Sequence record: PQ471516.1
Reading direction: 5' to 3' (one strand)
DNA from: Escherichia phage Turkey5
Length of the DNA: 64,000 nucleotides
Shown: positions 55,185 through 56,248 of the stretch, piece by piece
How positions within the stretch are numbered: the first letter of the stretch is position 1
Layout of the letters: each line of letters begins with the position of its first letter
The notes under the pieces: generated by a model
The model's database searches: none
Seen by the model: the letters and a program-made list of their open reading frames with translations, nothing else
What the model was told of the DNA's origin: nothing
Translations under genes and position numbers: made by a program

Positions 55185-55712
55185 ATGAGTGAAAAGGATT
55201 CTACTCAAACAAATAAACATTCAGTACACTTCAGTACTGGAAAGGATAACTGGACTACACCAAAGCAATTATTTGAAGATTTGGATGAAGTCTGGGAATT
55301 TACATTAGATGCTGCTTGTGTTAAAGAAACAGCACTATGTGAGAAGTACTTCACACCAGAAGATGATTCACTTTCACAGGATTGGGGTAAGAATATTTGC
55401 TGGCTCAACCCGCCCTATAGTGATTTGAAAACTTGGTTATCTAAGGCGGTTGATGCATACAATAAAGGTGCAACAGTAATGATACTAGTACCTTCAAGGA
55501 CTGATACTATTGCATTTCAACAGTACGCAGCTAAGGTATGTGATTGTGTATGTTTCATTAAAGGTAGATTGCGTTTTGGTATTCCTGAAGAACCTGAAAA
55601 GAAAACTGATTCAGCCCCCTTCCCTAGCTGCTTGATAGTACTGGATAAGTACTTAACTCCCGCTAAACTAAATTATCTTAAATCTCTTGGATTGGTGATG
55701 AAGAACGTATGA
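55185..55712 (+). CDS. dam: DNA N6-adenine methyltransferase, phage Dam family
   Basis: Motifs 'WTTPKQLFEDL', 'FTLDAAC', 'CEKYFT', 'WLNPPYS', 'ILVPSRTDT' typical of the phage Dam N6-adenine MTase family; RBS AAAGGA. Confidence 0.8.
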   Translation: MSEKDSTQTNKHSVHFSTGKDNWTTPKQLFEDLDEVWEFTLDAACVKETALCEKYFTPEDDSLSQDWGKNICWLNPPYSDLKTWLSKAVDAYNKGATVMILVPSRTDTIAFQQYAAKVCDCVCFIKGRLRFGIPEEPEKKTDSAPFPSCLIVLDKYLTPAKLNYLKSLGLVMKNV

Positions 55713-56248
55713 AAGAAGCATGTATAGTATCTTTTATGAGATGTAACCCGATACATCATGGACATGGATTAGTGTTTGAAAAGGCACGATCCCTACAAGA
55801 ACAGTACGACGCGGACTTAAAGATCTTTCTAAGTACCAGTACTGATACTGTTAAAAACCCCTTACCACCTGAATTGAAAATGTATTACACAGAGGGATTC
55901 TATCCTAATGTGCAAGAAAACATTTGCATTGAGGACAATTTATTTGATATAATGAGAGAGTTAGATGGGAAGTACATGGATGTGTTGTTCATCTGTGGCT
56001 CTGACAGGATTAACTCTTTCCAAAAAACTCTTGACAGCTACAATGGTAAGCTGTATAATTTCTGTAATATTAAGGCAATCCAAGCAGGAATTGACCGTAA
56101 TGTTAGTAAGTACAGTTCAACACAAATGCGTTCCTTTGCTAAGAATGATGACTTCGAAAGCTTCAGTTCATTTTTACCAGGGAATGATATCGACTTAAAA
56201 CAAAAACTCTTTGAAGATGTAGTAAAATACATGAGGAAAGAATTATGA
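55709..56248 (+). CDS. nucleotidyltransferase of the HxGH cytidylyltransferase-like superfamily (possible NMN/nucleotide adenylyltransferase)
   Basis: N-terminal 'FMRCNPIHHGH' (H-x-G-H motif) and C-terminal 'SKYSSTQMR' (SxT..R motif); ATGA overlap with dam. Confidence 0.6.
   Translation: MKEACIVSFMRCNPIHHGHGLVFEKARSLQEQYDADLKIFLSTSTDTVKNPLPPELKMYYTEGFYPNVQENICIEDNLFDIMRELDGKYMDVLFICGSDRINSFQKTLDSYNGKLYNFCNIKAIQAGIDRNVSKYSSTQMRSFAKNDDFESFSSFLPGNDIDLKQKLFEDVVKYMRKEL

Follow-up and report, generated by a model that had tools for sequence, protein, structure and literature searches.

We analysed a 64,000-nucleotide (nt) stretch of DNA from Escherichia phage Turkey5 (sequence record PQ471516.1; this whole stretch is here called the window), with particular attention to two overlapping genes at 55185-56248, both on the + strand. 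The upstream open reading frame (ORF; 55185..55712, 175 amino acids [aa], PF05869) encodes a Dam-family methyltransferase. The downstream ORF (55709..56248, 179 aa) encodes a HIGH-superfamily nucleotidyltransferase of the T4-GC190 / PHROG 3041 family, with a predicted fold like that of the nicotinamide mononucleotide (NMN) adenylyltransferases (NMNATs). The two share an ATGA start/stop overlap at 55709..55712 (+), read directly from the sequence. An original prediction, made from the letters of the sequence, had singled out this pair, and both ORFs exist as it gave them, with WLNPPYS in the methylase and HHGH and SSTQMR in the nucleotidyltransferase; it had also taken the overlap for translational coupling and considered that the pairing might carry a functional meaning. 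The source phage is an Asteriusvirus, within the Rak2-like group of jumbo myoviruses with genomes of about 350 kilobases (kb). Over the region, identity to the window is 98.7% for Escherichia phage vB_EcoM_JNE01 and about 77% for 121Q, PBECO4, and phAPEC6, and records of the 121Q/JNE01 type already name the pair “DNA methyltransferase” and “cytidyltransferase”.

Judged by its profile matches, the methylase is an ordinary orphan N6-adenine DNA methyltransferase of the Dam family, in agreement with the assignment first proposed. Against the Dam profile PF05869 it scores 115.5 bits (cut-off 28.1; E 2.7e-33), with profile positions 7-152 of 169 covered; further matches are to phrog_111 (E 3e-56) and to the “orphan methyltransferase” model of PADLOC (E 6.6e-32). 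It carries the catalytic (D/N)PP(Y/F/W) motif as NPPY at residues 75-78, inside WLNPPYS. Against the TIGR01712 equivalog it is a borderline miss, at 93.6 bits compared to a cut-off of 97.05, and no solved structure was detectable by sequence. The methylase family is represented in 2,170 phage records, among them those of Stx-converting phages, lambdoid phages, and many siphoviruses. The enzyme would transfer a methyl group from S-adenosylmethionine to the N6 position of adenine in phage DNA, and may in this way blunt host restriction.

The nucleotidyltransferase has both ATP-binding motifs of its superfamily, HxGH (HHGH at residues 16-19) and SxxxxR (SSTQMR at residues 136-141), and residues G18, H19, S136, and R141 are invariant across its family. 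Its active-site motifs are thus complete on alignment; the HxGH nucleotidyltransferase of the original prediction stands, and the incomplete active site that would have told against it is not what we see. The protein matches PHROG 3041 (E 9.3e-53) and PHROG 395 (E 2.3e-22), both labelled “cytidyltransferase”, and with this profile match and all family-invariant residues present it falls within the T4-GC190 / PHROG 3041-395 family. The family signature comprises GRxNPx(H/T)xGH, SxSxDxKKNPL, GSDR, YNG, SAGxR, and SxS/TKMR, of which the window protein carries the motifs GRxNPx(H/T)xGH, KNPL, GSDR, YNG, and SxTxMR; one Yersinia phage record calls its orthologue “Cyanophage-encoded cytidylyltransferase #T4 GC0190”. 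By tblastn, the family is present in 556 phage records, 455 of them from Synechococcus or Prochlorococcus myoviruses, and the cyanophage members bear the name “cytitidyltransferase”, gene cluster T4-GC190. The number of representative clusters retrieved by an exhaustive profile search was 3,097 with a cut-off of E<=1e-3 and 1,962 with one of E<=1e-10; a word-indexed homologue search retrieved close relatives alone. In many of these clusters the nucleotidyltransferase domain is N-terminal in proteins of 400-1,200 aa, and the fusion partners found in the family are DUF5824, P-loop kinases of the Zeta-toxin/AAA_33/polynucleotide kinase (PNK)-like kinds, and inteins. From these sequence features we regard the protein as a member of a widespread, separate, and uncharacterised phage enzyme family.

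Published information on this family is sparse. A cyanophage member has been detected in purified virions, with its function called unclear (PMC9146016). We found no experimental work on the family in the literature, and nothing under the misspelt label “cytitidyltransferase”; the papers on Sharanji, JP4, EJP2, and phAPEC6 are silent on the gene, jumbo-phage and NAD reviews do not include the family, and PADLOC gives no match for the nucleotidyltransferase. Labels in sequence records are uneven. Orthologues are mislabelled “ribonucleotide reductase A” or “NrdB” in the records of 121Q (KM507819, gene 418), Salmonella phage 7t3, and Escherichia phage Ecwhy_1, and the generic RefSeq label “cytidyltransferase” covers both the T4-GC190 family and true NadM.

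The profile assignment called for at the outset (NadD or NadM, CoaD, or other) reaches no curated family. The window protein scores 16.7 bits against Pfam CTP_transf_like, below the threshold of 21, and the combination that marks a glycerol-3-phosphate or phosphocholine cytidylyltransferase, an above-threshold CTP_transf_like match with an RTxGxSTT signature, was not found in it. None of the curated NadD, NadM, NadR, or CoaD thresholds is reached: in NCBIfam the protein matches NadD models over the HxGH stretch alone (TIGR00482, 17.5 bits compared to a cut-off of 112.45), and the CoaD model TIGR01510 does not match it. An NCBIfam scan of 64 family members gave sub-threshold matches alone (best E about 1e-5), mostly to pyridine-nucleotide adenylyltransferases, with TIGR00482 matched by 53 members, PRK01153 by 24, PRK08887 by 21, NadR by 18, and NadM by 11; CoaD was weakly matched by 11/64 (best E 0.0021) and RibF by about 4/64. 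When the family was compared by hhalign with the NadM of phage CBB, about 60 N-terminal columns aligned at 62% probability, with GRxxPxHxGH matched and the family KNPL placed opposite the NadM KNPF. A direct sequence search of the protein against solved structures returned noise alone, and a profile search of the sequences of solved structures returned similarly weak matches to MJ0951 (TmcAL family), NadD, and phosphopantetheine adenylyltransferase (PPAT).

For fold comparison we used a structure model built from the 64-sequence alignment. The nearest neighbours of the model are the bifunctional NadM NMN adenylyltransferase (2qjt, score 14.5), an archaeal NMNAT (1f9a, 13.8), and PPAT (13.1), followed by nicotinic acid mononucleotide (NaMN) adenylyltransferases (about 11-12), TmcAL (about 10), and cytidylyltransferases (9.1-9.7). 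An arginyl-tRNA synthetase had appeared as the top match of a poor model made from 9 relatives (predicted local distance difference test score, pLDDT, 72), which the 64-sequence model supersedes. In our reading, the protein is an adenylyltransferase rather than a cytidylyltransferase, and the database label “cytidyltransferase”, inherited by the records from the Pfam name, is probably wrong. The NMN adenylyltransferase first suggested stands in part: NMN, leading to NAD+, is the best single guess at the substrate from modelled fold and weak profile similarity, with a chance of about one in three, while the protein fails the NadD, NadM, and NadR cut-offs and belongs to a separate phage family. 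Mechanistically, the enzyme would bind ATP through HxGH and SxTxxR, move AMP onto a phosphorylated small molecule, and release pyrophosphate.

The two genes belong to a conserved block, made up of a 180-aa ORF, the methylase, the nucleotidyltransferase, and a 96-aa ORF, that is found in 61 Rak2-like records and in a metagenomic relative. Within the window, a simple chain of + strand ORFs contains 153 adjacent pairs, 19 of which overlap by 4 nt (15 as ATGA, including the very next junction, 56245-56248); with such overlaps so frequent, that between the methylase and the nucleotidyltransferase is not distinctive. The junction also varies. Among the Asteriusvirus genomes examined, both the window and 121Q show the 4-nt overlap; elsewhere the junction is a gap of 8 nt in the Yersinia phage, of 18 nt in XbC2, and of 1 nt in the metagenomic relative L016, or an overlap of 8 nt in Munch, and Xanthomonas phage XaC1 has the methylase and the nucleotidyltransferase orthologue separated by four ORFs (about 1.6 kb). 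The nucleotidyltransferase stands without a Dam gene in the PA5oct-like phage Ettore and in cyanophage P-SSM4, and more generally the methylase family (2,170 records) and the nucleotidyltransferase family (556 records) mostly occur without each other.

We see no functional signal in the pairing, which is confined to a single phage clade, has an overlap that changes from genus to genus, and in XaC1 is interrupted by four ORFs. Translational coupling as a sign of joint function, as first proposed, is thus not sustained, and we found no evidence of a nucleic-acid modification or anti-defence role tied to methylation, which had been raised alongside it. The adjacency would instead be synteny inherited within the Rak2-like clade, and the ATGA overlap a consequence of genome compaction, with two ordinary jumbo-phage genes acting separately in a densely packed early/middle block. 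One observation pulls the other way: adjacency is retained across several genera at 30-50% protein identity, so selection rather than inertia is possible. Overall, we assign a probability of roughly 60% to the reading that an ordinary phage methylase and an uncharacterised member of an NMNAT-like adenylyltransferase family act separately and are adjacent through clade synteny.

In marine T4-like phages, the true conserved partner of the nucleotidyltransferase family is DUF6267 (PF19782), not Dam. In 7/7 contexts examined outside the Rak2-like group (P-SSM4 and six metagenomic contig types), DUF6267 lies no more than three genes from the nucleotidyltransferase, often overlapping it, and these contexts are within a replication/recombination module with UvsX, gp41 helicase, RNase H, and MazG (DUF6267 genes at L014:3790-5004, L006:2345-3271, L010:7511-8743, L012:7699-8919, L018:2342-3568, and L019:2799-4001). 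In PHROG 455, DUF6267 (profile positions about 22-342) is fused to the nucleotidyltransferase domain (about 418-700), and in cyanophage records the two are found in near-equal numbers, 456 for DUF6267 and 455 for the nucleotidyltransferase, at adjacent coordinates. Searches of the window, of the fetched Rak2-like loci, and of Escherichia phage records turned up no DUF6267. By eye, the invariant residues of DUF6267 (K49-W-D-G, Q119-x-D121, H170-T-x-Y, E368-G-Y-V, and K381-x-x-D-R) resemble motifs I, III, IIIa, IV, and V of covalent nucleotidyltransferases, that is, ligases and capping enzymes. Solved-structure profile searches, a permissive Pfam scan, and source names gave this link no support, and hhalign of DUF6267 against the 121Q DNA ligase and against the Rnl1-type ligase of the window returned nothing; since no profile comparison supports it, the ligase likeness is a lead at the level of motifs. 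The window ligase just mentioned is a T4 Rnl1-type RNA ligase (61771-62913, +; PF09511 and T4_Rnl1_C), and in 121Q a polynucleotide kinase follows Rnl1 about 1 kb further on; the two make up the classic pair for tRNA repair that counters PrrC-type anticodon nucleases, a reading also suggested in the phAPEC6 paper.

Rak2-like phages CBB and GAP32 are described as carrying a NadM-type NMNAT, NadV, and PnuC (PMC5259590). We located NadM and NadV of CBB and by tblastn traced orthologues to those Yersinia, Xanthomonas, Erwinia, and Salmonella phages in which the methylase/nucleotidyltransferase pair is present; in these sister genera the NadM and NadV module is about 22 kb downstream of the pair. 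With canonical NadM and NadV present, a plain NAD-salvage role for the nucleotidyltransferase would be redundant in the sister phages, where it is an addition to the canonical NMNAT. In Asteriusvirus 121Q (L009, 218-222 kb), the site that corresponds to NadM and NadV in CBB (L008, 55-58 kb) has genes for ClpP-like and HslV-like proteases instead, with the neighbouring Sir2 kept and a standalone Nudix gene present. With 121Q lacking NadM and NadV at this syntenic site, a non-redundant NMNAT role in Asteriusvirus is possible. Among Escherichia phage records, there are 10 NadM matches by tblastn. No NAD gene (NadV, Nudix, PnuC, or other) was found among the scanned window ORFs within about 6 kb of the nucleotidyltransferase.

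The most substantial alternative is that the nucleotidyltransferase is a working NMNAT that keeps NAD+ up in infection independently of the methylase, either by salvage or by re-adenylating NMN from NAD-dependent ligases or NADase defences. We consider this possible but doubtful. It has on its side the top fold neighbours (NadM and archaeal NMNAT), weak profile matches that are mostly to NMN/NaMN adenylyltransferases, the GR..P.H.GH and KNP[FL] motifs that it has in common with phage NadM, automatic JGI names of some members as NMN/NaMN adenylyltransferase, and the state of the syntenic site in 121Q, where Sir2 and Nudix are kept and NadM and NadV are missing, so that the role would not be redundant in the genus. 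Several observations weigh against it, and against NMN as the substrate. Every curated NAD-family cut-off was failed (e.g. 17.5 bits compared to 112); the sister genera that have this pair possess NadM and NadV of their own, so that orthologues accompany the bona fide enzymes in Yersinia, Xanthomonas, Erwinia, and Salmonella phages; and NadV is found neither in the neighbourhood of the gene in the window nor within a few kb of it in P-SSM4 and four marine contigs. The family is also near-universal in cyanomyoviruses, with a fixed partner, the domain of unknown function DUF6267, that is not an NAD gene. Finally, the DxxxNxxW stretch, which we take to be the nicotinamide-binding stretch of archaeal NMNATs, is not conserved in the family alignments, by eye.

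The recurrent presence of DUF6267 opens a different route, in which the family would act on or with nucleic acids within a repair or ligation module, e.g. by supplying or regenerating an adenylate donor for a ligase-like partner, from which it would have become separated in the Rak2-like phages. The 7/7 neighbouring contexts, the PHROG 455 fusion, and the matched record counts (455 and 456) fit this, as do the DUF6267 stretches K-W-D-G, Q-x-D, E-G-Y-V, and K-x-x-D-R that by eye look ligase- or capping-like (motifs I, III, IV, and V), the fusion of some family members to PNK/Zeta-type P-loop kinases, and the Rnl1 of the window with PNK downstream in 121Q. We nevertheless think it unlikely, in that no profile method ties DUF6267 to ligases, the domain was not found in the window, the fetched Rak2-like loci, or the Escherichia phage records, and HIGH nucleotidyltransferases of this size normally work on small molecules. 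A bolder version, and a longer shot, is that the T4-GC190 family forms the catalytic core of an undescribed phage system, acting with DUF6267 (perhaps a very divergent lysine-adenylating ligase, whose nucleotide donor it might make or regenerate) in marine T4-like phages and re-wired beside Dam for DNA modification or anti-defence in Rak2-like phages. That the adjacent genes form a coupled pair, in which the nucleotidyltransferase activates a small molecule as its adenylate and the Dam-like protein or a partner installs it on DNA adenine for hypermodification or anti-defence, seems to us very improbable: the methylase is a full-length, high-scoring, typical PF05869 protein with NPPY, the pairing is missing in roughly 2,100 other methylase-family and roughly 500 other nucleotidyltransferase-family records, the genes are apart in XaC1, and NMNAT and PPAT are clearly better fold matches than TmcAL or tRNA synthetases. 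We give least credence of all to the label taken literally, a CTP-dependent cytidylyltransferase (e.g. for glycerol-3-phosphate) acting on envelope precursors; many family members do pass the Pfam CTP_transf_like threshold, of which the window protein falls short, and the idea is repeated in cyanophage papers that call the function unclear (PMC9146016).

On either side of the pair, the layout is as follows. After an upstream 315-aa ORF, a consensus scan finds a terminator-like hairpin with a T-run (53970..53997, +), and the Munch and GAP32 records have terminators annotated at the equivalent position. A sigma70-like promoter match, TTGAAT-17-TATAAT (54528..54556, +; 10/12 positions), stands before the three-gene run; a match of this kind, from a consensus scan alone, is not in itself a sign of function. 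The first gene of the conserved block is the 180-aa ORF (54626..55168, +), which matches phrog_16210 (E 4.9e-70) and has no Pfam match; its orthologue is 5' of the methylase in 121Q, JNE01, Yersinia, Xanthomonas, and Munch phages, and it is annotated in relatives. The methylase had been described as directly following an ORF-free island, a placement that needs correction: the 180-aa ORF intervenes, and the stretch free of long ORFs is 53952-54625 (674 bp). Downstream, the 96-aa ORF (56245..56535, +; phrog_14956, E 1.8e-33) overlaps the nucleotidyltransferase gene by ATGA, and its orthologue is 3' of the nucleotidyltransferase in 121Q, Yersinia, Xanthomonas, and metagenomic relatives. A perfect sigma70 consensus, TTGACA-17-TATAAT (12/12), occurs at 56031-56059 (+), within the nucleotidyltransferase ORF and aimed at the downstream small ORFs. 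Further along is a series of paralogous small ORFs, each about 90-100 aa long (57454-57738, 57725-57997, 57978-58283, and 58880-59170, all +), with the common N-terminal motif (F/L)(T/Q)(Y/F)(R/K)x(L/I)(Y/F). No tRNA genes were found in the window.

The island itself is the best-conserved DNA of the neighbourhood: 53952-54500 is 88-90% identical to 121Q (85% over the whole of 53952-54625), compared to 50-80% for the flanking ORFs. By blastn, it is found in all 61 Rak2-like records, in every genus, at 65-75% identity and in 4-5 places per genome, with paralogous copies in other long intergenic gaps, such as that between CBB genes 167/168 and one in XaC1 near 303 kb. We now report within it a candidate new structured RNA of about 500 nt (54004..54533, +, bounds by nhmmer), of which the window has this sole copy and no second one. 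An alignment of 11 island sequences has long invariant blocks with variable helices between them, and RNAalifold predicts 78 pairs from it, of which 36 have compensatory double changes. Two-sided changes at these 36 pairs compare to 16.2+-2.4 in shuffles (0/500 reach 36) and 5-12 in slid-partner controls. On the predicted structure 95.5% of cells are paired, a figure that is inflated by deriving the structure from the same alignment, so the compensatory counts are the stronger measure. The alternation of C-G with U-G points to the + strand for the RNA. Rfam gave no match for the island even at E<=10, the folding energy of the single sequence was not significant, and nothing relevant was found in the literature on an RNA in Rak2-like phages. 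With its other copies elsewhere in the genome, the RNA is not specifically tied to the methylase block.

The window also has extreme oligonucleotide biases. GCGC is absent from the 64 kb, compared to 59 expected under a second-order Markov model, though GCG and CGC are common; about 105 kb of sequence from other Rak2-like loci (L001, L009, L003, L004, L007, and L016) likewise lack it, and the PA5oct-like phage Ettore has it. The palindrome AGTACT occurs 275 times, compared to 21 expected from base composition (a 12.9-fold excess); it is evenly spread (9-30 per 4 kb), in all three codon phases, with five sites within 55185-56248. There are 55 occurrences of CAGTACTG in the window, where 0.7 are expected. 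A 9-14-fold AGTACT excess is found in 121Q, CBB, XbC2, Yen9-03, and L016, and not in Ettore or P-SSM4. Among tetramers, GATC ranks second in depletion, with 138 occurrences compared to 249.5 expected (observed/expected ratio 0.55; 0.40-0.47 in 121Q). We found no description in the literature of the AGTACT bias or of the other oligonucleotide biases.

The gene pair itself is of little weight, both genes being annotated in dozens of published relatives and their juxtaposition having no demonstrable meaning. The nucleotidyltransferase matters more as a representative of a very abundant, uncharacterised phage family, nearest to NMNATs and nearly universal in the cyanomyovirus records searched (455), for which the DUF6267 partnership offers a concrete handle on its role. 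More surprising than the gene pair are the island RNA and the oligonucleotide biases, with no GCGC and a 13-fold AGTACT excess.

Compared to known systems, the methylase resembles the phage Dam-type methyltransferases (PF05869, TIGR01712) in its full-length profile match, its NPPY motif, its small size (175 aa), and the lack of a partner restriction enzyme; it differs from the typical members in scoring just below the TIGR01712 cut-off and in having only about 30-33% identity to Stx-phage and lambdoid members. The setting also departs from a typical Dam setting, in that GATC is depleted in a genome that encodes a Dam-family methylase. The nucleotidyltransferase and phage NadM (Pectobacterium phage CBB gene 113) have the motifs GR..P.H.GH and KNP[FL] in common. 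Unlike the NadM-type and archaeal NMNATs (2qjt, 1f9a), it has no Nudix domain and no neighbouring NadV, and it scores below all curated profile cut-offs; the GSDR and YNG motifs of its family set that family apart from NadM-type NMNATs. It is likewise distinct from CoaD, since KNPL, GSDR, and YNG are specific to the phage family, of which only 11/64 members have even a weak CoaD profile match. The window protein belongs instead with the “cyanophage cytidylyltransferase” family (T4-GC190, PHROG 3041/395, and the nucleotidyltransferase half of PHROG 455). Within that family, marine T4-like members are usually longer, with N- or C-terminal extensions or DUF5824, kinase, or intein fusions, and sit beside or are fused to DUF6267, whereas the window protein is a bare 179-aa domain beside Dam.

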